Shown: one piece after another, positions 5,134 to 37,216 of the stretch | Layout of the letters: every line of letters begins with the position of its first letter | Position numbering within the stretch: the stretch's first letter is position 1 | Source of the DNA: Eubacteriales bacterium | GTDB taxonomy: Bacteria; Bacillota; Clostridia; Oscillospirales; CAG-382 | DNA: 41,878 nt | Direction: 5' to 3' | NCBI GenBank assembly: GCA_045651025.1 | Contig: JAZRRU010000070.1 | Coordinates: 1-41,878 of the forward strand | Made by a program: the position numbers and the translations under genes | The notes under the pieces: generated by a model | What the model saw: the letters and a program-made list of their open reading frames with translations, nothing else | The model's database searches: none | Told to the model about the DNA's origin: nothing

Positions 5134-7434
5134 TTATCCGTTAACCTTTTCGAGGTCTTTTTTGCGGATTTCGACACGTCTGACCTTACCGCTGATGGTC
5201 TTCGGGAGCTCGTCGACAAATTCGACGATTCTCGGGTATTTGTAGGGTGCGGTGTGTGTCTTGACGTATTCCTGAATCTCTTTTTTGAGCTCGTCCGTGC
5301 CGACGGTGTTCTTCGTGAGCACGATCGTCGCCTTTACGATCTGACCGCGTACCTCGTCGGGAACGGGAGTGATGGCACATTCAAGAACGTAGGGAAGCTC
5401 CATGATAACGCTTTCGATCTCGAACGGTCCGATACGGTAACCCGACGACTTGATAACGTCGTCGATACGTCCGACGTACCAGAGATAACCGTCCTCGTCC
5501 ATCGTCGCCTGGTCGCCCGTGTGGTAATAACCGTCATACCATGCTTCGTTCGTCTTTTCCTCGTCGAGGTAATAGCCGATGAAGAGTCCGCAGGGAACGT
5601 TTTCGCTCGTGCGGATGCAGATTTCGCCCGCGTCGCCCGTCTTGCATTCGTTTCCGTCGGGATCGAGGATAACGACGTCATAGAGGGGGCTGGGCTTACC
5701 CATAGAGCCGAGCTTCGAAGTCGAGCCGACGAAGTTTGCAATCGAGAGAGTGGTCTCTGTCTGACCGTAACCCTCCATGATAGTCAGTCCCGTTGCTTTC
5801 TTGAACTGGTTGAAAACCTCGGGGTTGAGCGCTTCGCCCGCGGTCGTAGCGTATTCTATCGAAGAAAGATCGTATTTCGAGAGGTCTTCCTTGATGAAGA
5901 AGCGGTACATCGTGGGGGGCGCACAGAAGGTCGTGATGTTGTACTTCTTGAAAAGGGGAAGGATGTCGTCGGAGTGGAATCTGTCGAAGTCGTATGTGAA
6001 AATACCTGCCTCGCAGAGCCACTGACCGTAGAGCTTGCCCCAGAGCGCTTTGCCCCATCCCGTGTCGGAGATCGTGAAATGAAGTCCGTCGGGGTTTACG
6101 TTGTGCCAATATTTCGCGGTCGTATAATGACCGAGCGCGTATTTGTAAGAGTGTGTCGCGATTCTCGGATATCCCGTCGTGCCCGAGGTGAAGAGCATGA
6201 GCATCGGGTCGTTTCCGCAGGGAGTGTTCTCGTTGCGGAAGTAATGGGTGCTGAAACGCTCCATTTCGACGTTGAAGTCGTACCAACCGTCTTTCGTTCC
6301 GCCGACGAGTATCTTCTTGATCTCGGGGAACTCGCTTGCCGCCTTTTCCGCTTCGGCGGATACGCTGCCGTCAGCGGTGCAGACGATTGCTTTAACTCCG
6401 GCTGCTTTGTATCTGTAACTAAAGTCGTGCTCGACGAGCTGGTTCGTCGCGGGAATCGCGATCGCGCCGATCTTGTGAAGCGCGAGCATACAGAACCAGA
6501 ACTGATAGTGACGCTTGAGGACGAGCATAACCGTGTCGCCCTTTTTGATTCCGAGCGATTCGAAGTAGTTCGCCGTCTTTGCGGAGTAGCGCTTCATATC
6601 GTTGAACGTGAATCTTCTTTCGGACTTGTCGTTGCCGACCCACATCATCGCGAGCTTGTCGGGATTCTTCTCGGCGATAGCGTCAACACAGTCAAAAGCA
6701 AAGTTGAACTTGTCTTCGTTCTTGAACTTGATTCCGTTGAAAACGCCCTGCTCGTCAAGCGTCGTTTCAACAAAATTGTCTGCGACGGTCTTGACGTTCG
6801 AGTCCGCTTTTTTGGCTTTCGCGCCAATAAACGGTGCTTCGGGGTAGGACTCCGCAAAATCGCCGTCCTGCCGGTTGAGAACGACCGCCTGGAACTCGCA
6901 TCCGCCCTCGCTCACCGCGATCATACCGTGAGGAATAATACTGTTGTAGAATATCGAGTCGCCCTCGTTGAGAACGCTGATATGATTGCCGACCTGAACC
7001 TTGAGCGAGCCCTTTACGATAACGTCAAACTCCTGACCGTTGTGGGAGTTGAGCTTGATAGGTGCGTTCTGCTCGGATTCCATGTAGGGGAGCTTTACGA
7101 GGAACGGCTCGGCGAGCTTGTCCTTGAACTTCGGTGCAAGGTTGTAGTAAACGCCTGCCTGCTTCTTGATTATTTCAAGTCCTTCGCCTTTTCTCGTGAT
7201 CGCAAAAGAAGTAAGCGTCGTGCTCGTACCCTCGATAATATCGACGACCTCGACGTTACACGCTTTTGCGCATTTATAAATAAAAGTAAAACTGAAATCG
7301 GTCTCGCCCTGCTCGAGAAGACGATAGTCCTCAAGCGTAACGCCCGTGAGGGCTGCGAGCTCTTCCTGCGAATAGCCCTTTGCCTCACGCAAGCCCTTGA
7401 TACGGCTTGCAACCTCTTTCAAATTGATTTCCAT
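5134..7434 (-). CDS. fusion protein: XRE-type HTH + cupin domain + medium-chain-type acyl-CoA synthetase (ANL adenylating enzyme)
   Basis: The start is taken at MEINLKEV (ATG 7434) with a GGAAGGAG RBS; the ORF-track start at 7524 lies inside the T-box terminator. Domains: aa ~5-60 HTH (GYSQEELAALTGVTLEDYRLLEQG), aa ~100-187 cupin (G-x-E-F...GD...PHG), aa ~240-766 ligase. Ligase motifs: TSGTTGYPR, YGQTE, YHTGD, GRIDDVIKSSGYRIGPFEIE, ISGKVRR. Confidence 0.8.
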   Translation of the reverse strand: MEINLKEVASRIKGLREAKGYSQEELAALTGVTLEDYRLLEQGETDFSFTFIYKCAKACNVEVVDIIEGTSTTLTSFAITRKGEGLEIIKKQAGVYYNLAPKFKDKLAEPFLVKLPYMESEQNAPIKLNSHNGQEFDVIVKGSLKVQVGNHISVLNEGDSIFYNSIIPHGMIAVSEGGCEFQAVVLNRQDGDFAESYPEAPFIGAKAKKADSNVKTVADNFVETTLDEQGVFNGIKFKNEDKFNFAFDCVDAIAEKNPDKLAMMWVGNDKSERRFTFNDMKRYSAKTANYFESLGIKKGDTVMLVLKRHYQFWFCMLALHKIGAIAIPATNQLVEHDFSYRYKAAGVKAIVCTADGSVSAEAEKAASEFPEIKKILVGGTKDGWYDFNVEMERFSTHYFRNENTPCGNDPMLMLFTSGTTGYPRIATHSYKYALGHYTTAKYWHNVNPDGLHFTISDTGWGKALWGKLYGQWLCEAGIFTYDFDRFHSDDILPLFKKYNITTFCAPPTMYRFFIKEDLSKYDLSSIEYATTAGEALNPEVFNQFKKATGLTIMEGYGQTETTLSIANFVGSTSKLGSMGKPSPLYDVVILDPDGNECKTGDAGEICIRTSENVPCGLFIGYYLDEEKTNEAWYDGYYHTGDQATMDEDGYLWYVGRIDDVIKSSGYRIGPFEIESVIMELPYVLECAITPVPDEVRGQIVKATIVLTKNTVGTDELKKEIQEYVKTHTAPYKYPRIVEFVDELPKTISGKVRRVEIRKKDLEKVNG

Positions 7435-7480
7435 TGTTGTTTGCTCCTTCCGTTTCTGTTGATTCGGATTTGAATAAAAC

Positions 7481-7766
7481 AAAAAAGACTCGTCCCAAAG
7501 AAAACTTTGAGACGAGTCATTCAACTCGCGGTACCACTCAAATTGCGAACACGATGATTCGCCACCTTACGGGCTCAATCAAGCCCTTGCTTTCACGCAG
7601 CAATACGGAAGGAACCTAATTAACGTTCGTTGTTCAGCCCTCCAACTCGGAAGTGATGGGTCATTGGAAAGCTCTGTCATTGGCTCGCAGCAACCGCCAA
7701 CTCTCTCAAAACTCGGCAATCCGACCGTCTTCGTCATAGTTGTTCATTATATTCAAATTTCATTGT
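7481..7766 (-). promoter_or_regulatory. T-box riboswitch leader, probable Ile (AUC) specifier
   Basis: Minus-strand RNA features:
- K-turn context UGAC...CGAG.
- AGAGAG bulge (7701-7706).
- Distal loop GGUUGCUGCGAG.
- T-box motif GAGUGGUACCGCGAG (7527-7539).
- Terminator GACUCGUC-N16-GACGAGUC plus U6 (7481-7518).
The specifier loop is non-canonical. The best reading is CCC-AUC-A next to the basal helix GAAG/CUUC (AUC at 7655-7657). Confidence 0.8.
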
Positions 7767-7848: not shown

Positions 7849-9132
7849 TCAAATGCATGCGAGCGCCTGTTCGATGTCTGCGATAATGTCAACCTTGTCC
7901 TCAAGACCGCAGGAAAGGCGAATAAGATCGGGAGCAACGCCCGCCGCCTTGAGTTCGGCGTCGTTCATCTGACGGTGAGTTGCGTTTGCGGGATGCAAGC
8001 AGCAGGTCTTCGAGTCCGCAACGTGCGTTTCGATCGATGCGAGCTTGAGGTTCTTCATGAACTTCTCCGCAGCCGTTCTTCCGCCGTCAACGCCGAACGA
8101 AATTACACCGCAGGAGCCGTTGGGAAGATATTTCTGACCGAGAGTATAGTTCTTGTCGTCCTCAAGACCGCAATAGCGTACCCATGTGATCTTCGGATGC
8201 TTCTTGAGGTATTCGGCAACCGCCTGCGCGTTTTCGCAATGACGCGCCATTCTTACCTCAAGACTTTCAAGCCCGAGGTTGATGAGATATGCGTTCTGGG
8301 GCGATTGGATCGCGCCGAGATCGCGCATGAGCTGTGCGGTTGCTTTCGTGATATACGCACCCTCGAGACCGAATCTTTCGGTATAAGTAACGCCGTGATA
8401 GCTTTCGTCGGGAGTGCAAAGTCCGGGGAACTTGTCGGGATATTTCGTCCAGTCAAATTTGCCGGAATCTACGATGCATCCGCCGACACCGCTTGCGTGA
8501 CCGTCCATATATTTCGTCGTGGAGTGAATTACGATATCTGCGCCCCATTCGATCGGACGGCAGTTGATGGGTGTTGCAAACGTGTTGTCGATAATAAGCG
8601 GTACGCCGTGACTGTGCGCCGCTTTTGCAAAGCGTTCGATGTCAAGCACATCGAGCGCGGGGTTTGCAATCGTTTCGCCGAAAACTGCTTTCGTGTTCGG
8701 ACGGAAAGCGTTTTCGAGCTCCTCGTCCGAGCAGTCGGGAGCAACGAACGTAAATTCGATGCCCATTCTCTTCATAGTAACCGAGAAGAGGTTGAACGTT
8801 CCGCCGTAGATCGCGGACGAACAAACGACGTGGTCACCGCAGGACGCGATGTTGAAGACGCTGTAGAACGAAGCCGCCTGACCGCTCGAGGTCAGCATCG
8901 CCGCGCTACCGCCTTCAAGCGCCGCAATACGAGCCGCAACGCAGTCGTTCGTGGGGTTCTGCAATCTGCTGTAAAAATATCCCGAGGCCTCGAGGTCAAA
9001 AAGCTTGCCCATCTCCTCGCTCGTATCGTATTTGAAGGTAGTGCTCTGATAAATAGGAATCTGACGGGGCTCGCCGTTTTTGGGAGTATAGCCCGCCTGA
9101 ATACATTTTGTACCGATTTTATAGTTGTTCAT
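7849..9132 (-). CDS. metY: O-acetylhomoserine sulfhydrylase-type PLP enzyme (Cys/Met metabolism family)
   Basis: 427 aa with family hallmarks: YSRLQNPT, SSGQAA, the PLP-lysine context HSTTKYMDGH, and C-terminal IRLSCGLED. A GAGG RBS precedes it, and only 17 nt separate it from the upstream gene. Confidence 0.9.
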   Translation of the reverse strand: MNNYKIGTKCIQAGYTPKNGEPRQIPIYQSTTFKYDTSEEMGKLFDLEASGYFYSRLQNPTNDCVAARIAALEGGSAAMLTSSGQAASFYSVFNIASCGDHVVCSSAIYGGTFNLFSVTMKRMGIEFTFVAPDCSDEELENAFRPNTKAVFGETIANPALDVLDIERFAKAAHSHGVPLIIDNTFATPINCRPIEWGADIVIHSTTKYMDGHASGVGGCIVDSGKFDWTKYPDKFPGLCTPDESYHGVTYTERFGLEGAYITKATAQLMRDLGAIQSPQNAYLINLGLESLEVRMARHCENAQAVAEYLKKHPKITWVRYCGLEDDKNYTLGQKYLPNGSCGVISFGVDGGRTAAEKFMKNLKLASIETHVADSKTCCLHPANATHRQMNDAELKAAGVAPDLIRLSCGLEDKVDIIADIEQALACI

Positions 9133-9149
9133 TATATTTACCTCACGAT

Positions 9150-11609
9150 CTACTTTTTGAGTCCAAGCATTTCGATGGATTCATCACGCATTTTGTATTT
9201 GAGGATCTTACCTGCGGCATTCATCGGGAACTGATCGACGAAAACGAAGTATCTCGGAACCTTGTGACGCGCGATATACGCGTTTCCGAACTCCTTCATC
9301 TCGGCTTCGTCCGCCGTTTCACCTTTGTGAAGAATAACCCATGCACAGCATTCCTCACCGTATCTTTCGTCCGGAACGCCGACGCCCTGAACGTCGCGAA
9401 CCTTCGGGTTTGTAAGATAAAATTCTTCGATCTCGCGGGGATAGAGGTTCTCGCCGCCGCGGATGATCATATCCTTGAGTCGGCCTGTGATCTTGTAATA
9501 TCCGTCGGGAGTTCTGCAAGCGATGTCGCCCGAATGGAGCCATCCGTCTGCATCGATCGCCTGCGCGGTTGCCTCGGGCATTTTGTAATATCCCTTCATG
9601 ATGTTAAAACCGCGTGCAACGAACTCGCCGCTTTCGCCGTCGGGAAGCTCCGAACCCGTTTCGGGATCGATGATCTTGCATTCAACTCCGGGGAACGCGC
9701 TTCCGACCGTCTCAACACGGTGATCAAGGTCTTCGTTAACCTCGCCCATCGTGCATCCGGGCGCCGCTTCGGTCTGACCGTAGACGGAAATTATCTCGCG
9801 CATGTTCATTTCAACGGCGGCGCGGCGCATCAGGTCCGCGGGACAGTTTGCACCTGCCATGATTCCCGTTCTCATGTATGAAAAATCGGGTTTTTCAAAA
9901 TCCTTGTGGTTGAACATCGCGATGAACATCGTCGGAACACCGTTGAAGCAGGTGATTCTTTCGTCGTTAACGCAAGCGAGCGACGATTTCGGCGAGAAAT
10001 AGGGGATGGGACAGAGCGTACCGCCGTGAGTCATCATCGAGGTCATCGAGAGAACCATGCCGAAGCAGTGGAACATCGGAACCTGAATCATCATGCGGTC
10101 TGCGGTCGAGAGGTCCATTCTGTCGCCGATGATCTTGCCGTTGTTGACGATATTTCTGTGGGTAAGCATAACGCCCTTCGGGAATCCCGTCGTACCCGAG
10201 GTGTACTGCATGTTGCATACGTCGTCGGGCTTTACGAGAGAAGCGCGTCTGCGAACCTCTTCACGCGGAACGAGCGAAGCGCGCGAGAGCATCTGCTCCC
10301 AGTTAAGACATCCGTCCATATTAAATCCAACCGTAACGACGTTACGGAGGAAGGGGAGATTCTTCGAGTAAAGGGGCTTGCCGGGGGTGAGATTCTTGAG
10401 CTCGGGACAGAGCTCGCTGATGATCTCTTTATAGTTAATATCCTTGCAGTCCTCGATCATAACGAGCGTGTGGGTGTCGGACTGACGAAGGAGATATTCG
10501 ATCTCGTGTATCTTGTATGCAGTGTTGACCGTAACGAGAACCGCGCCGATCTTCGTGGTTGCCCAGAACGTGACGTACCATTGAGGCACGTTCGTTGCCC
10601 AGACCGCAACGTGATCGCCCGCTTTTACGCCGAGCGAGATAAGTGCCGCGGCACATTCGTCAACGTCTCGACGGAACTGCTCGTAGGTTCGTGTGTAGTC
10701 AAGCGTAGGGTATTTGAACGCATACTGGTCGGGGTAATTCTTGCACATCGTGTCAAGAACGTCCGAGAACGTCGCGTCAATAAGGTCGTATTTTTTCCAG
10801 ACGTAGGTGCCGGTTTTTGCGCGGTTATAGTACGCGCGGTCAAAATCCTTTTTTTCGCGATTGAGCGACGAAATATAGTTTGCAAAATGAGTAAGAACGA
10901 TGTCCGCATCGTTGATCTCGTCGTTCCACGCCGCGCAGATAAATCCCTCGAAGTTAAGCGAAGAGAGCGCGTTGATAAGATTTTCGACGGGAAGCTCGCC
11001 CTCGCCGATAAGAACCGTTTTACCGTCCTTCATATCGCCGAGACGAACGTACTTTATGTACGCGCCGAGAACCTTGATCGTAGTTTCAGCCGTTTCACCC
11101 GCGCCGAAGTAAGTTCCTCTTACGTTCCAGCAGGCACCGATAACGGCAGACGAGAAAAAGTTGATTATGTCAATAACGTTTTGAGTATCCGAAAGAAAAC
11201 CGACCGTTTCGAGAAGAATATTTACGTCGCAATCCTCGGCACGCTTGATGGCGGGCGCGAGCTTTTCCTTCAAAACGTCGAAAGAAACCTCTTTTTCAAC
11301 GCGCACGATAACGTTCGAAACGCCCGAGACAGCCGCCATATCGACGTATTTCGTGATTGCTTCGGCGTTCGCCTCGTCGGATTCGATTGAGTAGGGGTAG
11401 TTAAGTGCGGAAACCGAAAGATTTCGGTTGATGAGCTTTCTTTTCGCGTCGGAAACGCGGTCACGGCGGAGAATACTGTCGTGATGCTGGTTGCGTTCTT
11501 TTATCGCATCGTATATCTCAAATCCCGAAAAGCCGTAGTCGTATGCATAACGGCAGGTATCGAGAAACGAGGGCCGATTCACATATTTTGTTGAAAATAC
11601 GATTTTCAT
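9150..11609 (-). CDS. fusion protein: xylose-isomerase-like TIM-barrel domain + acyl-CoA ligase (ANL family)
   Basis: aa 1-~250 resemble the AP-endonuclease-2/sugar-phosphate-isomerase barrel (NILLETVG, YVRLGDMKDG..GEGELP, FEGFICAAWNDE). aa ~260-819 carry YTSGTTGFPKGVMLTH, YGQTE, WLHSGD, GRLKDMIIRGGENLYPREIE and AAGKILK. The start lies 2 nt after the stop of the upstream gene. Confidence 0.8.
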   Translation of the reverse strand: MKIVFSTKYVNRPSFLDTCRYAYDYGFSGFEIYDAIKERNQHHDSILRRDRVSDAKRKLINRNLSVSALNYPYSIESDEANAEAITKYVDMAAVSGVSNVIVRVEKEVSFDVLKEKLAPAIKRAEDCDVNILLETVGFLSDTQNVIDIINFFSSAVIGACWNVRGTYFGAGETAETTIKVLGAYIKYVRLGDMKDGKTVLIGEGELPVENLINALSSLNFEGFICAAWNDEINDADIVLTHFANYISSLNREKKDFDRAYYNRAKTGTYVWKKYDLIDATFSDVLDTMCKNYPDQYAFKYPTLDYTRTYEQFRRDVDECAAALISLGVKAGDHVAVWATNVPQWYVTFWATTKIGAVLVTVNTAYKIHEIEYLLRQSDTHTLVMIEDCKDINYKEIISELCPELKNLTPGKPLYSKNLPFLRNVVTVGFNMDGCLNWEQMLSRASLVPREEVRRRASLVKPDDVCNMQYTSGTTGFPKGVMLTHRNIVNNGKIIGDRMDLSTADRMMIQVPMFHCFGMVLSMTSMMTHGGTLCPIPYFSPKSSLACVNDERITCFNGVPTMFIAMFNHKDFEKPDFSYMRTGIMAGANCPADLMRRAAVEMNMREIISVYGQTEAAPGCTMGEVNEDLDHRVETVGSAFPGVECKIIDPETGSELPDGESGEFVARGFNIMKGYYKMPEATAQAIDADGWLHSGDIACRTPDGYYKITGRLKDMIIRGGENLYPREIEEFYLTNPKVRDVQGVGVPDERYGEECCAWVILHKGETADEAEMKEFGNAYIARHKVPRYFVFVDQFPMNAAGKILKYKMRDESIEMLGLKK

Positions 11610-11611
11610 TC

Positions 11612-13000
11612 TTAGTTCTCCTCAAAAACGATCTTGTTGAGGGCGTTGATGTACGCTCTGATGCTTGCCGCAACGATGTCTGTGGAGATTCCGTTGCCCG
11701 AGTAGAGTTTTCCGTTGTTGCGGAGGCGTACGAGAGCCGAACCGAGTGCCTCTTTGCCTTCGGTTACCGACTGAACCTGAAAATCGTCGAGCTCGTAGTG
11801 ATAACCGACGCACTGCTCGATCGCGCGGAACGCCGAGTCGATAGGACCGTCACCCGTGCTGACGCCCGAGATGATCTCGCCGTCGCATTTGAGAGTTACC
11901 TGTGACATAGAGCTAGTGAGGTTACTGCTGTTAGTGGTATAACTCTCGAGATGATAGGTCGAGGGTGCCTGCATCGCAGAGCTTGCGATAAGCGCCTCGA
12001 GCTCCTTCGCACCGACTGCACCCTTCTTCTCGCAGACCTGCATGAGCGCTTTGTGAACGTTTCCGCAGTCGGACTCGTTGAGGTCATATCCGAGAAGCTG
12101 AGCCGCCTGTGCAACCTGCGCGATAGAGCTGTCGGAATCGAGAAGTATCTTCTTCTTTTCGCTTACGGTTTCGTCGGATTCGTAGGATTCGTGGTTTATG
12201 CTTGCAAGCATATCTTCGATGCTTGCGTGAATTTTCGTGTTGTTGAGGTCGGTGCCTGCATCAAGCTGGGATGCGCAAATATTCACCGCATCCGCGATCT
12301 CGCCAGTGAGAAGCACGTTCTTTCCCGCCATCGCGCATTTGAGTCCGTCTGCACCGTTTTTGATAGCCGCAACCGCCGACGCAACCGCCATGTTGATGCG
12401 GTCGGAAACCTGAACGTAAACAGGAGCGTCGATTTCTGCTTTGACCTTCATGACAAGATCGGCGATCTCGTCGGGGAGGGAAATACCCGCATCGTCGCAG
12501 AGCGTGATAACGCCCGCGCCGTTTTCTTTTGCTTCCCTTGCCGCAGAAATAAGGAACTCAACGTCGGCTCTCGTCGCGTCGAGCGCGCAGAATTCAACGT
12601 CTGCACAGAGTTCTTTTGCCGCTTTTACGAGCTCTGCGATCTTGAGGAGCATTTTTTCGGCTTTTACGTGGTAGGTATATTCCATCAAAACGGTCGAAAC
12701 GGGAAGCGCAACCTGAAGTCGGGGATTCTTCGCTTCCTTGATGCATTCGAAAGCGTTCTTCACGTCGTCAGCCGTAAAACCGACGGGAATCGCAACGATT
12801 GCGTTCTTTACGTTTTGACAAATAGTCTTGTATATAATAGCATCCTCGCGAAGATTCTTCACGGGCGCGAGCTCAATTGCGTTCGCACCGATTCTGTCAG
12901 CGCAAACGGCGATTGCGGTCTTTTCACGGAAAAGAAGCGCGATCTCGCGATCCTCGGAGAGCTTTTTGAGAGTAATGTCGGAAATGATTATGTTTTTCAT
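11612..13000 (-). CDS. LeuA (2-isopropylmalate/citramalate synthase)-like protein with degenerate catalytic motifs and a retained LeuA_dimer-type C-terminal domain
   Basis: The overall layout is collinear with IPMS. The C-terminus VTEGKEALGSALVRLRNNGKLYSGNGISTDIVAASIRAYINALNKI matches the regulatory domain. The N-terminal DTTLRDGEQ motif reads DITLKKLSE, and HxHNDxG reads QVSDRIN. Start chosen at ATG 13000 (AAAGGA RBS); ATG 13018 lacks an SD. Confidence 0.75.
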   Translation of the reverse strand: MKNIIISDITLKKLSEDREIALLFREKTAIAVCADRIGANAIELAPVKNLREDAIIYKTICQNVKNAIVAIPVGFTADDVKNAFECIKEAKNPRLQVALPVSTVLMEYTYHVKAEKMLLKIAELVKAAKELCADVEFCALDATRADVEFLISAAREAKENGAGVITLCDDAGISLPDEIADLVMKVKAEIDAPVYVQVSDRINMAVASAVAAIKNGADGLKCAMAGKNVLLTGEIADAVNICASQLDAGTDLNNTKIHASIEDMLASINHESYESDETVSEKKKILLDSDSSIAQVAQAAQLLGYDLNESDCGNVHKALMQVCEKKGAVGAKELEALIASSAMQAPSTYHLESYTTNSSNLTSSMSQVTLKCDGEIISGVSTGDGPIDSAFRAIEQCVGYHYELDDFQVQSVTEGKEALGSALVRLRNNGKLYSGNGISTDIVAASIRAYINALNKIVFEEN

Positions 13001-13050
13001 TTTTCTGGTTCCTTTCATTGTGGGAGCGAAAATATTTTTGAAGCTTCAAC

Positions 13051-13325
13051 AAAAAAACGTTTCCGTCTCCTTGTCGATCCAAAGAGACGAAAACGTCAAA
13101 AAAACATTTCCGCGGTACCACTCTTTTTCATCCGCTTCGGATGCACTCAGATGCAATCACATCTATGCTCTGTAACGGGAGCACCCGTCTGCCCTTACTT
13201 CGAAAATTCACGGCAGACGCTCCGCGGTGAGTTCTGCGAACCTTCCCCGATGCCTCGCACCAAACGGCATCTCTCTCAAGGCGAAAGTATTTCGCGTACT
13301 ATTCCGCATCACAGCGTTTAATATT
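13051..13325 (-). promoter_or_regulatory. T-box riboswitch leader, Leu (CUC) specifier
   Basis: Minus-strand RNA features:
- Basal helix GCGG/CCGC.
- Specifier loop AAUAGUA / AGAA-CUC-A (CUC at 13229-13231).
- AGAGAG bulge.
- Distal loop GGUGCGAG.
- T-box GAGUGGUACCGCG (13111-13123).
- Terminator CGUUUUCGUCUC-N14-GAGACGGAAACG plus U7 (13051-13095). Confidence 0.88.
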
Positions 13326-13332
13326 GAGTCGT

Positions 13333-13361
13333 ATTTTACCACGTTATCGCGGTTTTGTCAA
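13333..13361 (-). promoter_or_regulatory. sigma-A promoter (extended -10) for the Leu T-box operon
   Basis: Minus strand reads TTGACA (13361-13356), 17-nt spacer ending in TGg, TAAAAT (13338-13333). Confidence 0.75.
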
Positions 13362-13382: not shown

Positions 13383-14936
13383 TTAACAATTTTCGTTCAG
13401 GCATTCAAAAATCTCATCAACCTCTTTCGCGTTGCGCTTCTTCGTGAATGCGCTTACGATCGGCACGACGATGAACGAAACAGCCATCGCACAAACACCC
13501 ATCTCTGGCGATTTTGCCGCTGCGGATGCAAAATTCGAGTTAAGCGTGATAACGAGCGTCGAAATACCGACGGTGAGAAGTCCTGCGACCATACCTGCGT
13601 ATGCACCGGCCTTCGTGATCTTCTTCGAAAAGAGTCCCCAGATGTAGGGTCCGATGAAGCAACCCGAAACGACGCCCCACGAGAACGACATAAGACTTAC
13701 GATGATCGGAATGTCCTGCGTTGCAAAAATGAACGAGCACGCAACGAACGCGAGACAGAAAAGACGGGTGAGAAGCATTTGGTTGTCGGGATTTATCGTC
13801 TTTTTGCTGACAGTGGGGATGAAGTCGACTGCAACCGCCGACGCCGAAGTAAGAACGATCGACTGAAGCGTTGACATCGAAGCGGAGATCAACAGAATTA
13901 TAATAAGCGCAAGAAGAATGATCCCAAAAGTTCCGTTTGTCAGAACCGTCATAAGTACGCTCGGTATTACCGAGTCAATACCGCCCTCGGGGAGTTGACC
14001 TCCAAGAATAAGACGCGACGTACTGCCGATGAGGTATGCACCACAGCCGATAACCGCACAGAAAATCGTCGAGATGATCGTTCCGCGCTTGATTGCCGCC
14101 GTGTCCTTGATCGCATAGAACTTGCCGATCATCTGCGGGAGCCCCCACGTACCGAAGCTCGTGAGCATGATGTTGAAGCACAAGAACCTGAAAGCGTTAC
14201 CGCCGAAGATGTTGGTAAGCTGGCTTCCCGTGACGGGATTCGGGTCGTCGGGAAGCGGCTTGAAGCTACCGAGATTTTCCAAGAGCCCCGAAATACCGCC
14301 GACGCTTTCGTGGTTAAGCACGACGAAAACAAGGCAAACAACGCCTGCAATCATAATAACGCCCTGAATAAGGTCGGTGTAAGCCGTCGCGACGTATCCG
14401 CCCGCAACAAGGTAAACCGCAGTAAGACAAGCGATCATAAGCATCCAAACCCAGGTTTCAACTCCGGGGAATACTGCGTTGAAGATCGAACCGAGCCCCT
14501 TGTAAACAGCGGCTGTATAGGGTACGAGAAACACGAAGATAACGACCGAAGCCAAAAGCTTCATCTTTTTCGAGGAGTATCTCTTCTCGAAATATTCGGG
14601 CATGGTTTTTGCGTTGAGCTTTTTCGTGATCTTTCTCGTGCGGTTCGCAAACAAAAGCCACGAAAGGAGACAACCGAGAACTGCGTTGCCAACACCGATC
14701 CAGATACTTCCGAGCCCGATGTTCCAACCGTGCTGACCTGCGTATCCGACAAAAACGACCGCCGAAAAATAGGTCGTGCCGTATGCGAACGCCGTCGACC
14801 AAGCGCCGATGTTTCGCCCTCCTATAAGAAAATTATCAAGAGTTTTTGATTTGCCGTAACTTATACAACCGACAAGTGCCATCAAAACTGCATATATGCA
14901 GAGACCTATGATTGTGTAAAGCTGTGCATCTGTCAT
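13383..14936 (-). CDS. sodium:solute symporter (SSS) family transporter
   Basis: 517-aa polytopic protein with an SSS-like N-terminal pattern (FLIGGRNIGAWSTAFAYGTTYFSAVVFVGYAG) and about 13 hydrophobic segments. An AGGAGG RBS precedes it, and a Tyr T-box lies directly upstream. Confidence 0.85.
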   Translation of the reverse strand: MTDAQLYTIIGLCIYAVLMALVGCISYGKSKTLDNFLIGGRNIGAWSTAFAYGTTYFSAVVFVGYAGQHGWNIGLGSIWIGVGNAVLGCLLSWLLFANRTRKITKKLNAKTMPEYFEKRYSSKKMKLLASVVIFVFLVPYTAAVYKGLGSIFNAVFPGVETWVWMLMIACLTAVYLVAGGYVATAYTDLIQGVIMIAGVVCLVFVVLNHESVGGISGLLENLGSFKPLPDDPNPVTGSQLTNIFGGNAFRFLCFNIMLTSFGTWGLPQMIGKFYAIKDTAAIKRGTIISTIFCAVIGCGAYLIGSTSRLILGGQLPEGGIDSVIPSVLMTVLTNGTFGIILLALIIILLISASMSTLQSIVLTSASAVAVDFIPTVSKKTINPDNQMLLTRLFCLAFVACSFIFATQDIPIIVSLMSFSWGVVSGCFIGPYIWGLFSKKITKAGAYAGMVAGLLTVGISTLVITLNSNFASAAAKSPEMGVCAMAVSFIVVPIVSAFTKKRNAKEVDEIFECLNENC

Positions 14937-14961: not shown

Positions 14962-15232
14962 TAAAAAGCCCCCGTATTCCAAAATGAATACAGAGGACGA
15001 GAAAACCCGTGGTACCACCTCTATTTACCGTTCTCTCGCGATCACGGCCTTTCCGAGTGCCAATCAGCACCCTCGTTCTGTGACGGGAACTCCCGTTGCG
15101 GCCTACTCGGTTCACCCTTTCGGTGCACTGCTCGCAGAATGTATTCAGCAAGAACGTCCCCATTGTCTCGCACCACCCGACAACTCTCTCAAGGCTTCGA
15201 AAATGCCTACTTGTTTCTGCTCAAACGCATTT
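14962..15232 (-). promoter_or_regulatory. T-box riboswitch leader, Tyr (UAC) specifier
   Basis: Minus-strand RNA features:
- Basal helix GCAGAA/UUCUGC.
- Specifier loop ACAAGUA / GAA-UAC-A (UAC at 15141-15143).
- AGAGAG bulge.
- Distal loop GGUGGUGCGAG.
- T-box GGUGGUACCACG (15008-15019).
- Terminator hairpin (14969-14996) followed by a U-rich run. Confidence 0.88.
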
Positions 15233-15238
15233 TTTAGC

Positions 15239-21848: not shown

Positions 21849-23213
21849 TTAAATTTTAGGAAGAGCTTCGATGCTCTTTTTGATTTCGTCGTCGGTGGGG
21901 ACATAGTCGGTCATAGTACCGTTGTTGACCTGCTCGTAAGCGGGCATATCGAAATAACCCGTACCCGTGAGACCAAAGAGAATGACCTTTTCCTCGCCCG
22001 TTTTCTTGCATCTGAGCGCTTCGTCAACTGCGGCTCTGATTGCATGGGAGGATTCGGGCGCAGGGAGAATACCCTCGACCTTCGCGAAAAGCTTCGCCGC
22101 CTCGAAAACCTCGGTCTGCTTGTAGGACGTTGCCTTCATAAGACCGTCGTCATAGAGCTGGGAAACGACCGAGTTCATGCCGTGGTAACGGAGTCCGCCT
22201 GCGTGGCTCGATGCGGGGATGTATTCCGAACCGAGAGTATACATCTTTATGAGAGGAGTCATGTGACCCGTGTCGCCGTAGTCGTATACAAACGAGCCCC
22301 TCGTGAGCGAAGGACAGGACGACGGCTCAACCGCGATAAATTCGGGGTCGTGAGTGCCGTTTATCTTGTCAACGACATAGGGAGCGATAAGTCCTCCGAG
22401 GTTCGAGCCGCCGCCGGCACAGCCGATAACAACGTCGGGATAGATGCCGTATTTATCGAGCGCGGCTTTCGCTTCGAGACCTATGATAGACTGATGAAGA
22501 AGAACGTGGTTCATAACGCTGCCGAGAACGTAACGGCAGTTTTCTGTGTTGATTGCCTTTTCGACCGCCTCGGAAATAGCGCATCCGAGCGAGCCCGTAG
22601 TGTTCGGGAATTTTTCGTTGATTCGTCTGCCAACCTCGGTCGTCATTGAGGGGGAGGGAATTACTTCCGCTCCGAACGTGCGGATAACCTCTCGTCTGTG
22701 GGGCTTCTGCATAGCCGAGCCCTTTACCATAAACACCGTGAGGTCAACGCCGTAGAACGCCGATGCCATCGCGAGCGCCGTGCCCCATTGTCCTGCGCCG
22801 GTTTCGGTCGTGAGCGAGGTTATGCCCTGCTCTTTTGCGTAGTAGACCTGCGCGACGGCGGAGTTGAGCTTGTGCGAGCCCGAGGTGTTTGCGCCCTCGT
22901 ATTTGTAGTAAATATGTGCGGGCGTGCCGAGTGCGCGTTCGAGATGATATGCGCGCGTCGTGGGCGACGGACGGAACATTTTATAGAAATCGATGATACC
23001 CTCGGGGATGTCGATAAAAAGATCGTCCTCGTTAAGCTCTTGTCTTGCAAGCTCGTCGCAGAATACCTTCTGCAACTGCTCAAAGGTCACGGGCTCCTTT
23101 GTGACGGGGTCAAGCATAGGCGCGGGCTTGTTTTTCATAGCGGCGCGGATGTTGAGCCACTGCTTCGGTATCTCGTTTTCCGAAAGAAATATCTTGTAAG
23201 GAATCGTAGACAT
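21849..23213 (-). CDS. trpB: TrpB2-type tryptophan synthase beta-like PLP enzyme
   Basis: 454 aa starting at MSTIPYKI (ATG 23213, AAGGAGA RBS). It has the PLP-lysine context NTSGSHKLNSA, a GGGSN loop and the long TrpB2-style N-terminus. The ORF-track start at 23294 lies inside the T-box. Confidence 0.88.
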   Translation of the reverse strand: MSTIPYKIFLSENEIPKQWLNIRAAMKNKPAPMLDPVTKEPVTFEQLQKVFCDELARQELNEDDLFIDIPEGIIDFYKMFRPSPTTRAYHLERALGTPAHIYYKYEGANTSGSHKLNSAVAQVYYAKEQGITSLTTETGAGQWGTALAMASAFYGVDLTVFMVKGSAMQKPHRREVIRTFGAEVIPSPSMTTEVGRRINEKFPNTTGSLGCAISEAVEKAINTENCRYVLGSVMNHVLLHQSIIGLEAKAALDKYGIYPDVVIGCAGGGSNLGGLIAPYVVDKINGTHDPEFIAVEPSSCPSLTRGSFVYDYGDTGHMTPLIKMYTLGSEYIPASSHAGGLRYHGMNSVVSQLYDDGLMKATSYKQTEVFEAAKLFAKVEGILPAPESSHAIRAAVDEALRCKKTGEEKVILFGLTGTGYFDMPAYEQVNNGTMTDYVPTDDEIKKSIEALPKI

Positions 23214-23241
23214 TTTTTGATTCTCCTTTGACTTATTCAAG

Positions 23242-23492
23242 AAAAAACCGCAAGATATACCAAACCTTTGAGGCGATATATCTCGCGGTGCCACTCAAAA
23301 TTATACTCAGCGGGTACGTAAATACCCCTCCCGTTGACGCAGGGATTCTTGCGGCGCGGCATACTTGCAAAAACTTTCCGCCTTGCTCCTCTCGGGTCCA
23401 TTCGACGAGAACTTACCTGTCGGACTTCCACCGTCTCCGACTCGCTGAAGGCAGTAATCTTGCTTACTACTCCCGATCACAGGATTTTTAAA
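23242..23492 (-). promoter_or_regulatory. T-box riboswitch leader, Trp (UGG) specifier
   Basis: Minus-strand RNA features:
- Basal helix UCGGG/CCCGA.
- Specifier loop AGUAGUA / GAA-UGG-A (UGG at 23398-23400).
- Distal loop GGUGGAAG.
- T-box GAGUGGCACCGCGAGA (23284-23296).
- 12-bp terminator CCGCGAGAUAUA/UAUAUCUUGCGG plus U6 (23242-23288), overlapping the T-box motif. Confidence 0.88.
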
Positions 23493-26950: not shown

Positions 26951-27027
26951 GGTTCGGTAGTTCAGTTGGTTAGAATGCCGCCCTGTCACGGCGGAGGTCG
27001 TGGGTTCGAGTCCCATCCGAATCGCCA
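26951..27027 (+). tRNA. tRNA-Asp (GTC), CCA encoded
   Basis: 77-nt cloverleaf: acceptor GGTTCGG/CCGAATC, anticodon loop CTGTCAC, T-arm GTGGG-TTCGAGT-CCCAT. Confidence 0.92.
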
Positions 27028-27069
27028 ACTTTTTTCAATCCTTTCCGTTTCAGCTGCTCCGCAAGACGT

Positions 27070-27145
27070 GCGGATTTAGCTCATTTGGTAGAGCGCCACC
27101 TTGCCAAGGTGGAGGTAGCGGGTTCGAGCCCCGTAATCCGCTCCA
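27070..27145 (+). tRNA. tRNA-Gly (GCC), CCA encoded
   Basis: 76-nt cloverleaf: acceptor GCGGATT/AATCCGC, anticodon stem CCACC/GGTGG with loop TTGCCAA. Confidence 0.92.
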
Positions 27146-27169
27146 GACTTGATCCGAAAGGATCGGTAT

Positions 27170-27243
27170 GGCGCCATAGCCAAGCGGTAAGGCAGAGGTC
27201 TGCAACACCTTTATCCCCAGTTCGATTCTGGGTGGCGCCTCCA
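27170..27243 (+). tRNA. tRNA-Cys (GCA), CCA encoded
   Basis: 74-nt cloverleaf: acceptor GGCGCCA/TGGCGCC, anticodon loop CTGCAAC, T-arm CCCAG-TTCGATT-CTGGG. Confidence 0.9.
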
Positions 27244-27279
27244 AGAAAAATACAACTTCATATATAAAACGTCTTTGAT

Positions 27280-27355
27280 GCTGATGTGGCACAGGTGGTA
27301 GCGCACATCCTTGGTAAGGATGAGGTCATGAGTTCGAGTCTCATCATCAGCTCCA
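27280..27355 (+). tRNA. tRNA-Thr (GGT), CCA encoded
   Basis: 76-nt cloverleaf: acceptor GCTGATG/CATCAGC, anticodon stem CATCC/GGATG with loop TTGGTAA. There is one mismatch in the D-stem. Confidence 0.85.
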
Positions 27356-27431
27356 GCGGATTTAGCTCATTTGGTAGAGCGCCACCTTGCCAAGGTGGAG
27401 GTAGCGGGTTCGAGCCCCGTAATCCGCTCCA
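27356..27431 (+). tRNA. tRNA-Gly (GCC), second identical copy
   Basis: Sequence identical to 27070-27145. It starts on the nucleotide after the CCA of tRNA-Thr. Confidence 0.92.
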
Positions 27432-27436
27432 AAAAT

Positions 27437-27513
27437 GGTTCGGTAGTTCAGTTGGTTAGAATGCCGCCCTGTCACGGCGGAGGTCGTGGGTTCGAGTCCC
27501 ATCCGAATCGCCA
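27437..27513 (+). tRNA. tRNA-Asp (GTC), second identical copy
   Basis: Sequence identical to 26951-27027. Confidence 0.92.
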
Positions 27514-27540
27514 TTGCTTTCCCAATCGGGAAAGCGATAT

Positions 27541-27616
27541 GCCTCTGTAGCTCAGTTGGTAGAGCAGGAGACTGAAAATCTCCGTGTCATTGGTTCAATT
27601 CCGATCGGAGGCACCA
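27541..27616 (+). tRNA. tRNA-Phe (GAA), CCA encoded
   Basis: 76-nt cloverleaf: acceptor GCCTCTG/CGGAGGC (one G-U pair), anticodon stem GGAGA/TCTCC with loop CTGAAAA. Confidence 0.9.
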
Positions 27617-29758: not shown

Positions 29759-31678
29759 CTATTTTAACATATTCACGGTTGTGTTCATGCCTTTTCCGCC
29801 TCCGCTCATGTTCCCGCCGGAGGAAGAGAGACGCAGAATCTTGAGATATCTGTCGACGTTCCCCTGTGGGATTCCGAGCTTTTGACAGCATTTTTTGAAC
29901 TCACTTTCGTCCTGCGCTGATGCGTAGATATAGTCAAGCTGTTTTTCGATCGCGACATCCTTCGCGGAGGTTTTCGCCGTTCTTTCATCCGCGCCCTGAA
30001 CGATGAGCTTGTTGTACTGCTCGCCGTAGATTTTTTCATAATGCTCTTTTGCATCGTAAGAAATGACCTGAACTTTCATGTCATCCGTGCTCGAGCTCGT
30101 GTATCCGTAGGATTTGAGCACGAGAAGAAGATCGTTAAGGTAATCCTCGTTCAGGTCGTAATTCTCACTGAGGTCAAGCAGGTATTTGTTCACGTAATAC
30201 ATCTGCTTGTCGCCATTGAGCGAGGTCTTTCCTCCGCTTGCGCTCGAAACGAGCTGTTTGCCGAGGTCTTTTGCGGTAATGCTCGGTGCGTAACCTTTGT
30301 TTTCGGTCGATTGGTTCTTGTTCGAGGAATTGCCCGACGAATTGTTTGAAGATGAATTTCCGTTCTGCGTCTTTTTTGCGTTCAGCTCAGCGTCGAGCAT
30401 CTGCTTTTTCATCTCCCAGCCGAGAAGCTCAAGCTCCTTCTTTGCACGAATCTCCGCTTCGTATTCCTCTTGCTTTGCCGCAAGCTCGGAAGCGCTTTTT
30501 TCTTTTGCCCACTGAAGCTCCTGCTGTTTCATCTCAAGCTCTGCTTGGAGCTGTTCCATGTCGGCTTTTATCTGTGCTTGGTATTTGTCCTTTTCGGCGC
30601 TTCTCTCTGCGGAATTTTCGAGCTGCTGTTGAATGAGCTCTTTGTTCTTCATTTCGAGCTCTGCTTGGAGCTTTTCCATATCCGCCTTGATCTGCGCTTC
30701 ATATTTTGCCTTGTCGGCGTCGCGGTTCGCAACGGCGTTTTCCTTTTCCCATTGGAACTCTTTGTCCCTCTGCGAAAGCTCTGCCTGAAGTCGTTCCATC
30801 TGTGCTCGGAGCTCTGCTTCGTATTTTGTCTTTTCTGCATCGCGGTTGGAAGAAGCGTTTTCCTTTTCCCATTGAAGCTCCTGCTGTTTCATCGCAAGCT
30901 CTGCTTGAAGCTTTTCCATATCCGCCTTGATCTGCGCTTCGTATTTTGCTTTTTCAGCAGCACGGTTAGAAACGTCATTCATTTTTTCCCATTGGAATTC
31001 TTTGTCCCTCTGTGAGAGCTCTGCCTGGAGACGTTCCATCTGTGCGCGGAGCTCGGCTTCGTATTTCGCTCTTTCCGCGTCGCGATTTGAAGAAGCGTTT
31101 TCTTTTTCCCATTGAAGCTCTTTATCCCTCTGCGAAAGCTCGTTCTGGTGGCGTTCCATTTCCGCCGCGAGAGAGGATTCTGCAAGATATTTTTCTTGCG
31201 CAAGCTTTGCGTCATCCTGCTCTTTTTGAAGCTCCATTCCCGCAATTTCCGCGTTGAGCTTGTTGCGTCTGTCGTGATAGTCGCTGATTTTTGCGGCTTG
31301 ATCGAACGCAAGCTCGTTTTTCTTGTCAGCAAACTGAAGCTCGATATCCTTCATGTTCGAGTTCTTTTTGCTTGCAAGCTCCGAAAAACGGTTCCCGAGA
31401 ATAATTCCCGAGTTGAGCTTCGCCTGCGCGGTCTCACCCGAAAATCCGAGTCCCCTTGCCGCGAGTGTATTAAGGGTGTTGCGCTCCTCGCGAGCGGTGT
31501 CGCTGTATGCTTGGTTCCTGTCGGCGCGGTATTGCGTTTCAATTTCGTTTTTTGCGTTCGTATGCTGATTCGAGAGGTTGCTGAGCGCGTTTTTATAGAG
31601 CTCGTTGAGCTTTTTCTCGTCTTCAGAATAACTCGCAAGCGCCGTTTTTAGGTTGTTGATTGTGTTATTGTAAGCCAT
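29759..31678 (-). CDS. phage-like 639-aa coiled-coil repeat protein (tail fibre/needle, or tape-measure/ejection-like)
   Basis: The central 245 aa are six tandem 40-aa repeats (M-E-R/K-L-Q-A-E-L-x-x-[RK]-x-K-E-[FL]-Q-W-E-K-E-N...K-Y-E-A-[EQ]-[LI]-[RK]-A). A Ser/Asn/Gly linker and a globular C-terminal domain follow. It overlaps the upstream gene by 14 nt. Confidence 0.7.
   Translation of the reverse strand: MAYNNTINNLKTALASYSEDEKKLNELYKNALSNLSNQHTNAKNEIETQYRADRNQAYSDTAREERNTLNTLAARGLGFSGETAQAKLNSGIILGNRFSELASKKNSNMKDIELQFADKKNELAFDQAAKISDYHDRRNKLNAEIAGMELQKEQDDAKLAQEKYLAESSLAAEMERHQNELSQRDKELQWEKENASSNRDAERAKYEAELRAQMERLQAELSQRDKEFQWEKMNDVSNRAAEKAKYEAQIKADMEKLQAELAMKQQELQWEKENASSNRDAEKTKYEAELRAQMERLQAELSQRDKEFQWEKENAVANRDADKAKYEAQIKADMEKLQAELEMKNKELIQQQLENSAERSAEKDKYQAQIKADMEQLQAELEMKQQELQWAKEKSASELAAKQEEYEAEIRAKKELELLGWEMKKQMLDAELNAKKTQNGNSSSNNSSGNSSNKNQSTENKGYAPSITAKDLGKQLVSSASGGKTSLNGDKQMYYVNKYLLDLSENYDLNEDYLNDLLLVLKSYGYTSSSTDDMKVQVISYDAKEHYEKIYGEQYNKLIVQGADERTAKTSAKDVAIEKQLDYIYASAQDESEFKKCCQKLGIPQGNVDRYLKILRLSSSGGNMSGGGKGMNTTVNMLK
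30434..31168 (-). repeat. in-frame tandem repeat, 120 bp x ~6 (alternating two 120-bp variants, so a ~240-bp super-repeat)
   Basis: Codons for aa 171-415 of the 639-aa protein. Met recurs at aa 174/214/254/294/334/374, and Trp at aa 190/230/270/310/390. Confidence 0.85.
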
Positions 31679-33407: not shown

Positions 33408-33787
33408 GCATATACCTCCGTTATCGAAACGGTTCGCGCTTTACCGAACCTTATCGCTCGCTCGCGTGCGTCGTGATAGAGCTTGTGAAAGTTTGCGGCA
33501 AGCTCGTCGTCCTCACCGAGAAGCAACAAGCGCGAAAGCCCGTAGGGAAGTATACCCGACGAAACGACGTCACTGCAAACGAGCTTGTCGTCGATCGACA
33601 GAATCGATTCGACACGATGCTCGATACGGCGGATTCTTGAGTCGATTTCCGCGTTCTCCGCAAGAAGTATGTTTATCAGCGAAACCGCTCTTTGCTGCAT
33701 GTCGGAAACGTCGTTCGGAATACTTCCGTCTGACTTCCTTAGACCGCATAGGTCAAGCGAAATTTCAAAAAGTTCTTTTCCTGTCAT
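33404..33787 (-). CDS. phage-like head-tail adaptor/connector candidate (127 aa)
   Basis: AAAGGAGGA RBS. A small helical protein located between the head and tail-like genes. No motif recognised. Confidence 0.45.
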   Translation of the reverse strand: MTGKELFEISLDLCGLRKSDGSIPNDVSDMQQRAVSLINILLAENAEIDSRIRRIEHRVESILSIDDKLVCSDVVSSGILPYGLSRLLLLGEDDELAANFHKLYHDARERAIRFGKARTVSITEVYA

Positions 33788-33822
33788 TTTGTCCTCCTTT
33801 GTATTTCTTATTTTAAAATGAA

Positions 33823-33851
33823 GGGCTGCCTCAAAAAATTTTGGGCAGCCC
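33823..33851 (-). terminator. intra-operon hairpin (attenuating terminator) after the head genes
   Basis: GGGCTGCC-N13-GGCAGCCC on the minus strand, followed by TTCATTTT. It lies between the 124-aa and 127-aa genes. Confidence 0.55.
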
Positions 33852-33856
33852 GGACA

Positions 33857-34231: not shown

Positions 34232-34248
34232 ATTAAGTTCTCCTTTCG

Positions 34249-35079: not shown

Positions 35080-35090
35080 ATTATTACCTC

Positions 35091-37206: not shown

Positions 37207-37216
37207 CTTTCTCCTT

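Follow-up and report, generated by a model that had tools for sequence, protein, structure and literature searches.

The window analyzed in this study is a 41,878-nucleotide (nt) stretch of DNA from a Eubacteriales bacterium (assembly GCA_045651025.1, contig JAZRRU010000070.1, positions 1 to 41,878). The gene under study, designated pLeuA, encodes a homologue of the 2-isopropylmalate synthase (IPMS) LeuA that is predicted to have been stripped of its catalytic residues. Based on Pfam, NCBIfam, alignments, and an AlphaFold2 (AF2) model, pLeuA was assigned to positions 11612..13000 of the minus strand, which carries every window feature described below except one tRNA gene cluster. The gene lies within an open reading frame (ORF) listed at 11612..13018. 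The ATG at 13000 is the likely start codon because homologues are 462 amino acids (aa) long and an AAGGA sequence precedes this ATG. The 462-aa product comprises a barrel (aa 1-262; 12215-13000), a shortened accessory linker (aa 263-342; 11975-12214), and a LeuA_dimer regulatory domain (aa 343-462; 11615-11974), and its stop codon occupies 11612-11614.

The region upstream of pLeuA contains a leucine-type leader. A consensus scan matched a sigma-70-like promoter, TTGACA-17-TAAAAT with a TG extension, at 13333..13361 (11/12), as a pattern match only. A T-box leader was detected at 13080..13321 by Rfam model RF00230, with 134.6 bits against a gathering threshold of 93 and an E-value of 6e-30. 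Its specifier codon, at 13231-13229 in the context GAA-CUC-A, is CUC (Leu), and the T-box sequence AGUGGUACCGCGG occupies 13122-13110. A terminator scan placed the intrinsic terminator hairpin of the T-box, with 18 pairs and then a U run, at 13056..13097, partly within the 3' end of the RF00230 match. Specifier codons in this study were read by eye or with a regular expression applied to the alignment, rather than with a dedicated tool. A preliminary description of the window, made from the DNA letters, had placed pLeuA first in a leucine-starvation operon, and this leader directly upstream of the gene supports that view.

The leaders of related loci were compared in the same way. These loci are labeled with L-numbers (L001 and so on), where L001-L080 form the close set and the divergent set begins at L081. 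The specifier was CUC in 61 of 74 orthologous close leaders and CUG in 2 of 74. In five divergent loci whose pLeuA proteins are 39-42% identical, a T-box also lay directly upstream, with CUC in L082, L099, L123, and L125 and CUG in L122. The switch between the synonymous codons CUC and CUG suggests that conservation acts on the identity of the amino acid. T-boxes are induced by uncharged tRNA, and the link of the pLeuA operon to leucine is well supported.

Immediately downstream of pLeuA, an 819-aa fusion of a TIM barrel and an AMP-forming acyl-CoA ligase is encoded at 9150..11609, as assigned by Pfam, NCBIfam, and AF2. The N-terminal barrel (about aa 1-250; 10860-11609) is xylose-isomerase-like (AP_endonuc_2, 4e-16). 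The ligase (aa 270-819; 9150-10802) matched AMP-binding (PF00501, 1.7e-93) and AMP-binding_C (PF13193, 1e-13), and the fusion reached 663 bits against PRK12583, an NCBIfam family of fatty-acid CoA ligases. All ligase core motifs were present, namely YTSGTTGFPKG, YGQTE, SGD, GRLKDMIIRGGEN, and AAGK, and the ligase half is predicted to be competent. The junction in the window reads TAA-GA-ATG, with a 2-nt gap and a GAGGAG Shine-Dalgarno sequence inside the 3' end of pLeuA. The translational coupling suggested in the preliminary description is thus consistent with the junction. Across the family, 121 of 147 loci had a distance between -7 and +5 nt from the pLeuA stop to the fusion start. Every one of the 137 family loci with 600 nt or more of downstream sequence showed the fusion immediately behind pLeuA (137/137), and no such fusion followed any of the canonical LeuA loci from the same scan.

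The TIM half of the fusion was modeled by AF2 with a predicted local distance difference test score (pLDDT) of 90.8 and a predicted template modeling score of 0.87. Its Foldseek matches were ketose 3-epimerases, UlaE, and AsbF. In the window clade, the metal-ligand pattern reads ENRYRDA in 74 of 76 sequences and ENRYRDS in the other 2 of 76, which means that the ligands have been lost. The canonical pattern (E/K)DHHHDE was found in 30 of 59 divergent sequences, and other divergent lineages displayed scattered partial losses, several of which are apparently independent. Free-standing relatives of this TIM domain were absent among the matches listed from a large protein database; the matches were pieces of this very fusion under the name 'AMP-binding protein' or 'TIM barrel protein'. 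As read from these residues, the module of the window would consist of two TIM-type domains stripped of catalytic residues and one competent ligase.

The preliminary description had also regarded pLeuA as collinear with the IPMS family and its C-terminal domain as retained, and both points held. In Pfam searches, HMGL-like (PF00682) matched residues 10-232 with an E-value of 5.9e-29, and LeuA_dimer (PF08502) matched residues 337-463 with an E-value of 5.5e-33 and spanned positions 4-130 of its 131-position profile. The C-terminal domain aligned to canonical LeuA without gaps. The AF2 model of pLeuA had a pLDDT of 92.3, and its barrel superposed on IPMS 3ewb with a template modeling (TM) score of 0.92 and a root-mean-square deviation of 1.6 Å. 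The full-length model matched M. tuberculosis LeuA, including the leucine-bound structure 3fig. The NCBIfam scores were far lower than expected for an enzyme of this class by the models' own thresholds. The best equivalog score was 242.8 bits for NF002086, whose cut-off is 532, and across the IPMS equivalogs pLeuA reached at most 243 bits against cut-offs of at least 517, below half of every cut-off. The citramalate synthase and homocitrate synthase models were also under their cut-offs.

The catalytic motifs were compared by residue-level alignment to the solved IPMS structures 3ewb, 3rmj, and 3eeg and to canonical LeuA. The D-R-E signature, which supplies the substrate Arg, the metal Asp, and Glu, changed from DTTLRDGEQ to DITLKKLSE in pLeuA. 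The TSxxH block ATSDVHMEY became PVSTVLMEY, and the HxHxDxG motif HCHDDLG became QVSDRIN. At strand 8, the NGxGERAGN motif NGLGERAGNA was replaced by A----GKNVL with a 4-residue deletion. All four replacements had been listed in the preliminary description and each was borne out by the alignment. Two further losses were absent from that description. The Glu of FSAEDATR is Leu in pLeuA (FCALDATR), and a deletion of about 40 residues takes out the HxSG(I/V)HQ motif of accessory subdomain I. The loop that carries this motif caps the active site of the partner subunit in IPMS.

A census of catalytic sites was made in 142 full-length pLeuA family members from genomes and metagenomes, with 34-82% identity. 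The metal Asp was retained in none (0/142), the second His of HxH in none (0/142), and the first His in 8/142, while the substrate Arg of the D-R-E signature remained in 38/142. The GER segment was deleted in all 142, and none of the 142 sequences had a His at either aligned position of the subdomain-I motif. By comparison, 15 of 16 canonical LeuA loci from the same scan kept every catalytic residue. Thus, no catalytic residues were found at shifted positions, and the losses of the metal Asp, the second His, and GER seen in the window gene proved to be family-wide. On these alignments, pLeuA is predicted to keep an intact LeuA fold from which every catalytic element has been lost, including metal binding, 2-oxoacid binding, and the catalytic loop of the accessory domain.

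Separately, partly degraded catalytic motifs were observed in three LeuA paralogues of canonical length, about 503-511 aa. These were L160 (9001-10488; DTTLSEGEK and RCRDDLG), P0254 (FDSTLCEGE and HSQNDLG), and P0269 (WDTTLCDGE and IRAYNDLG). They may represent independent or intermediate losses of catalysis within the LeuA family.

The pLeuA family is widespread. Thousands of homologues were present in a large protein database, and a library clustered at 50% identity contained about 120 clusters of full-length proteins (453-497 aa) down to approximately 31% identity, in which canonical LeuA (503-516 aa) surfaced only at about 200 bits. A pLeuA relative was encoded in 383 species-level genomes. 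The best 80 of these 383 were all metagenome-assembled genomes of gut or rumen Clostridia, including Oscillospiraceae, Acutalibacteraceae, and Monoglobaceae. Databases label the proteins 'hypothetical protein' or 'regulatory domain-containing protein', and one source mislabels them as '2-isopropylmalate synthase'.

Selection on the gene was assessed in close coding sequences (CDS). All 81 of 81 were intact, with lengths of 1386-1395 nt. Their median nonsynonymous divergence (dN) was 0.154 and their synonymous divergence (dS) approximately 1.76; dN/dS was at most about 0.09, a ratio that is an upper bound because dS is saturated. The C-terminal domain was the most constrained region, with a dN of 0.068 against 0.19 for the barrel, and the family-wide mean pairwise identity was 57.5% for this domain, 33% for the barrel, and 32% for the linker. 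By inspection, 14 of 16 barrel positions conserved at 90% or more were likewise conserved in canonical LeuA, and no new constellation of conserved polar residues stood out in the barrel. The intact CDS, the low dN relative to dS, and the presence of the same losses down to about 31% identity indicate a retained pseudoenzyme, as the preliminary description had proposed, and not a gene in decay. The family is old and under selection, and we hold with high confidence that pLeuA is a selected non-catalytic LeuA homologue.

Additional genes extend the operon in divergent loci of several independent lineages. In L082, L083, L086, and L088, the order was pLeuA, fusion, branched-chain aminotransferase (BCAT), and a PFOR-type 2-oxoacid:ferredoxin oxidoreductase (OFOR), where PFOR stands for pyruvate:ferredoxin oxidoreductase. 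In these loci, BCAT scored 466 bits on PRK13357 (cut-off 307), and the PFOR-type OFOR scored 1732 bits on TIGR02176 (cut-off 911). A VOR-type OFOR (VorB, 527 bits against 399) was found in L084, L116, L118, L122-L126, L135, L139, L143, and L144. Both OFOR and BCAT belonged to the operon in L082, L083, L086, L088, L099, L109, L118, L123-L126, L135, L139, L143, and L144. Among the divergent loci 9 kb or longer, 20 of 38 contained a BCAT, an OFOR, or both.

The operon is read in the biosynthetic direction because the reaction of AMP-forming ligases is in effect irreversible and because the T-box is induced on uncharged tRNA. A ligase, an OFOR, and a BCAT under a leucine-starvation switch are the exact enzyme set for converting isovalerate to leucine; therefore, isovalerate is the most likely acid for the fusion ligase to activate on the way to leucine. 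We consider it probable that pLeuA and an isovalerate-activating ligase act together to supply leucine. In the rumen, leucine can be formed through carboxylation and amination of isovalerate (PMC7356843), and genetic support exists for the action of a PFOR-family enzyme on branched-chain 2-oxoacids in Clostridium sporogenes (10.1101/401489).

The window contains a second T-box unit for a branched-chain amino acid (BCAA). A leader with the specifier AUC (Ile) lies at 7505..7746; its RF00230 score of 89 bits is just under the gathering threshold of 93, with an E-value of 4e-20. It has a perfect TTGACA-17-TATAAT promoter at 7800-7772 and a terminator at 7518-7487. The leader precedes a 766-aa protein (5134..7434) with a helix-turn-helix (HTH) domain, a cupin domain, and an AMP-forming acyl-CoA ligase (Pfam HTH_3, Cupin_2, AMP-binding, and AMP-binding_C), which is predicted to be a paralogous acid-activating enzyme under this isoleucine T-box. 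Among HTH-cupin-ligase orthologues and paralogues, 55 of 56 had a T-box motif upstream, mostly with AUC (Ile), and where two copies stood side by side, one had AUC (Ile) and the other GUA (Val). The isoleucine and valine T-boxes on paralogous ligases thus provide independent support for the acid-activation reading.

A different arrangement was observed in L135. One T-box at 5560-5789, with a specifier that is apparently AUC (Ile), heads a long operon in the order HTH-cupin-ligase, Amidohydro_2, pLeuA, fusion, BCAT, CbiA-like protein, and VOR. No separate leucine leader before pLeuA was detected above the Rfam gathering threshold in this locus.

We propose the following mechanism for the pLeuA module. 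The (beta/alpha)8 barrel of pLeuA would serve as a scaffold, and its function would lie in the retained C-terminal LeuA regulatory domain. The leucine-specific T-box would switch on the pLeuA-fusion pair when tRNA-Leu is uncharged. The ligase would then convert isovalerate to isovaleryl-CoA, an OFOR would form 2-ketoisocaproate from isovaleryl-CoA by reductive carboxylation, and a BCAT would convert 2-ketoisocaproate to leucine. In the standard pathway, leucine restrains IPMS by feedback. The leucine site of IPMS sits in the C-terminal domain (PMC9860122). In a similar manner, pLeuA would provide end-product control, where leucine on its regulatory domain would restrain the ligase. pLeuA most likely binds the 819-aa fusion, and we speculate that it might cap the TIM barrel of the fusion and restrain the movements of the ligase domain.

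The end-product-control reading is the most economical because within pLeuA the strongest constraint falls on the regulatory domain, and because the pLeuA gene invariably accompanies that of the proposed first enzyme in the alternative leucine route. We judge the chances about even that pLeuA is a pseudoenzyme conferring leucine feedback on the isovalerate-CoA ligase that opens the reductive-carboxylation route. Its assignment as a leucine-binding feedback subunit is finely balanced, leaning if anything toward doubt. A wider proposal is offered tentatively, as possible but somewhat doubtful. In it, pLeuA and the fusion would form a leucine-gated isovalerate-activating complex that uses two former TIM enzymes as an allosteric chassis. 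Together with the ligases under isoleucine and valine T-boxes, this complex would constitute the so far unassigned committed step, with its feedback, in a widespread ferredoxin-driven BCAA route that starts from branched-chain fermentation acids in gut and rumen Clostridia. The allosteric module of IPMS would have been transplanted, in the form of a pseudoenzyme, onto the enzyme that opens an alternative pathway.

Several observations weigh against end-product control of an isovalerate ligase by pLeuA. Neither an OFOR nor a BCAT was found within the 42-kb window, and in close relatives these genes were rarely located within 8 kb (OFOR in 2 and BCAT in 5 of 83). Purifying selection still acts on the barrel (dN/dS about 0.1), and its old active-site face keeps D8, T10, S102, D141, R144, and D169 nearly invariant; the barrel could still bind a ligand or serve another role. 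The canonical TIM ligands in about half of the divergent fusion lineages may point to an extra reaction in the ancestral module. Searched as a single sequence against the PDB, the C-terminal domain gave chance matches only, none of them to a solved homologue. In citramalate synthases the ligand of LeuA_dimer domains is isoleucine, and so the presence of this domain alone does not fix the ligand. Finally, leucine binding, the complex with the ligase, isovalerate as the substrate, and inhibition rather than activation are steps that we infer.

The strongest of the alternatives holds that the fusion strictly depends on pLeuA as a scaffold, chaperone, or specificity factor, which for example completes a hetero-oligomer, and that leucine regulates the operon at the T-box alone. 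The linkage in 137 of 137 loci and the tight coupling show a partnership and not sensing, and the retention of both TIM-type modules of the window clade despite their catalytic loss fits a structural chassis. However, the regulatory domain is the region under the strongest constraint, at 57.5% identity and a dN of 0.068 compared to 33% and 0.19 for the barrel. The LeuA_dimer signature is also kept over the full profile, which is hard to explain if ligand binding is irrelevant. We therefore regard a pure scaffold as unlikely.

It is also conceivable that pLeuA senses another ligand, such as 2-ketoisocaproate, isovalerate or isovaleryl-CoA, or another BCAA, through the regulatory domain or the barrel face, or that it activates the ligase. 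This alternative draws on the established isoleucine binding by LeuA_dimer in citramalate synthase, on the nearly invariant residues of the substrate face of the barrel, and on the L135 pair within a longer operon under an isoleucine-type T-box. On the other side, the leader is leucine-specific in the large majority of the lineages examined, as seen in 63 of 74 close leaders and five divergent loci, and the Arg and the metal site for 2-oxoacid binding are gone from the barrel. Such a ligand or an activating role appears rather improbable.

A third alternative, which we rate as quite improbable, is that pLeuA has been neo-functionalised into a metal-independent enzyme, for example one acting on isovaleryl-CoA or on an intermediate shared with the fusion TIM or with an Amidohydro_2 protein. 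The purifying selection on the barrel (dN/dS about 0.1), the canonical metal ligands of the partner TIM in 30 of 59 divergent sequences, and an Amidohydro_2 gene after the pair in 23 loci hint at a chemistry beyond that of the ligase, OFOR, and BCAT. However, canonical LeuA by inspection also conserves 14 of the 16 positions that reach 90% or more in the barrel, no new polar constellation stands out, and the barrel is among the least conserved parts of the protein. Moreover, the ligase, OFOR, and BCAT already suffice for the pathway. The last alternative, that pLeuA is a pseudogene in decay or a true leuA distorted by annotation, for which the motif loss alone speaks, is refuted by the 81 of 81 intact CDS of near-constant length with dN far below dS, the thousands of homologues, the 383 species-level genomes, and the confident fold.

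The Amidohydro_2 (PF04909) protein named above has about 266 aa and is often encoded right after, and sometimes before, the pLeuA-fusion pair. It was present in L081, L102, L105, L123, L135, and L147 and in 17 of the loci L001-L080, and it matched no NCBIfam model.

Returning to pLeuA as a proposed leucine-responsive pseudoenzyme, we compared it with known systems. Like LeuA (TIGR00973/PRK00915; PDB 3ewb, 3rmj, and 1sr9/3fig), pLeuA has an HMGL-like barrel, an accessory linker, and LeuA_dimer in this order, and it is tied to leucine supply and its regulation. Unlike LeuA, it is without RD/E/Q, HxH, and NGxGERAGN, the HxSGxHQ loop of subdomain I is deleted, and the TIM and acyl-CoA ligase fusion always comes next. 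No leu-operon context was recognized at the loci examined, where leuBCD were not searched for explicitly. As far as its residues can tell, pLeuA would fail every catalytic criterion of LeuA and the DRE-TIM enzymes, and the name isopropylmalate synthase seems unsuitable.

The plant enzymes derived from IPMS (PDB 6e1j), methylthioalkylmalate synthase (MAM) and 2-isobutylmalate synthase (IBMS), resemble pLeuA in that one functional half of IPMS has been discarded. The two cases are mirror images: MAM and IBMS keep catalysis and drop the allosteric domain, whereas pLeuA keeps the allosteric domain and drops catalysis. Plant offshoots of IPMS without the regulatory domain have been described (PMC11532901; 10.1101/2021.09.28.462264). 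In function, the closest likeness would be to separate regulatory subunits that bind amino acids, such as IlvN/IlvH of acetohydroxyacid synthase; like them, pLeuA would be a small-molecule-binding polypeptide encoded beside the enzyme that opens a pathway. It is also similar to the ACT-domain proteins beside PaaK-type aryl-acetate-CoA ligases in anaerobes, where a binding protein and a ligase form a pair. Unlike IlvN/IlvH and the ACT proteins, the sensing module of pLeuA is a LeuA_dimer domain on a complete dead TIM-barrel enzyme, and its regulatory action is putative. pLeuA would be a pseudoenzyme or allosteric subunit that descends from IPMS, an enzyme family not known for such use.

A further likeness concerns the rumen route from branched-chain acids to amino acids (cited in PMC7356843). 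The ligase, OFOR, and BCAT match the enzymes needed for this route, and the hosts are Clostridia of ruminant and other animal guts. In the papers searched, the route is physiologically defined, and none of them describes T-box control, dedicated ligases, or a dead-LeuA partner. A literature search that left most subscription journals outside its scope returned no description of a dead IPMS family, of T-box-controlled branched-chain acid ligases, or of isovalerate-to-leucine genes.

The use of isovalerate, 2-methylbutyrate, and isobutyrate by bacteria of the rumen and hindgut as starting material for leucine, isoleucine, and valine is long established. In the same literature search, no paper was found on the genes for the activation step of branched-chain acids or on its control. 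The pLeuA locus family supplies named candidates for this old rumen pathway, namely three T-box-controlled acyl-CoA ligases beside OFOR and BCAT genes, and these candidates are directly testable. If the proposed role is true, pLeuA would be a clear bacterial metabolic pseudoenzyme, in which the allosteric half is reused to regulate a different enzyme of the same end product. Furthermore, the wrong label '2-isopropylmalate synthase' can make genome-based models predict leucine prototrophy through a pathway that pLeuA, as predicted, could not catalyze.

Among the neighboring genes of the window, an O-acetylhomoserine sulfhydrylase (7849..9132; TIGR01326, 582 bits) begins 17 nt 3' of the fusion, between the leucine and isoleucine T-box units. 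No terminator was predicted between 9150 and 7849, and neither a promoter nor a terminator of its own was predicted for this gene. It is probably co-transcribed with the fusion in the genome of the window, so it would be under leucine control here only. As a conserved member of the module it was rejected, being absent downstream of the pair in 80 of 80 orthologous loci.

A sodium:solute symporter family transporter is encoded upstream of the leucine leader at 13383-14936. It is preceded by a T-box leader with the specifier UAC (Tyr) at 14990-15234 (99.9 bits), and it could import tyrosine or an aryl-acid precursor. The symporter was also rejected as a module member because it was found in few of the 80 loci and there lay downstream, not upstream as in the window. 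Its orthologue was located 3' of the pLeuA pair in the few related loci L021, L040, and L067.

In 15 close loci, including L009 and L011 (about 5800-7567), a 438-aa PaaK-like phenylacetate-CoA ligase and, behind it, an ACT-domain protein of 143 aa were observed just upstream of pLeuA, as assigned by eye. This pair represents a second case of an acid-CoA ligase with an amino-acid-binding protein in the same neighborhood.

The window contains four T-box leaders in total, with leucine, isoleucine, tyrosine, and tryptophan specifiers. The tryptophan leader (UGG) lies at 23266-23489 with 93.0 bits, and behind it a stand-alone TrpB-like pyridoxal-phosphate enzyme is encoded at 21849-23231 (PRK12391, 663 bits). 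This arrangement suggests a salvage of indole to tryptophan, which fits a region where precursor salvage is a recurring theme.

Farther along the window, a cluster of seven tRNA genes occupies 26951-27613 of the plus strand. Large ORFs without a Pfam match, together with a P22-like portal protein (35614-37347), fill positions 29759-37347 of the minus strand, and at 30-32 kb the AT skew takes strongly negative values (-0.40 and -0.33). This part of the window is probably a prophage or its remnant.

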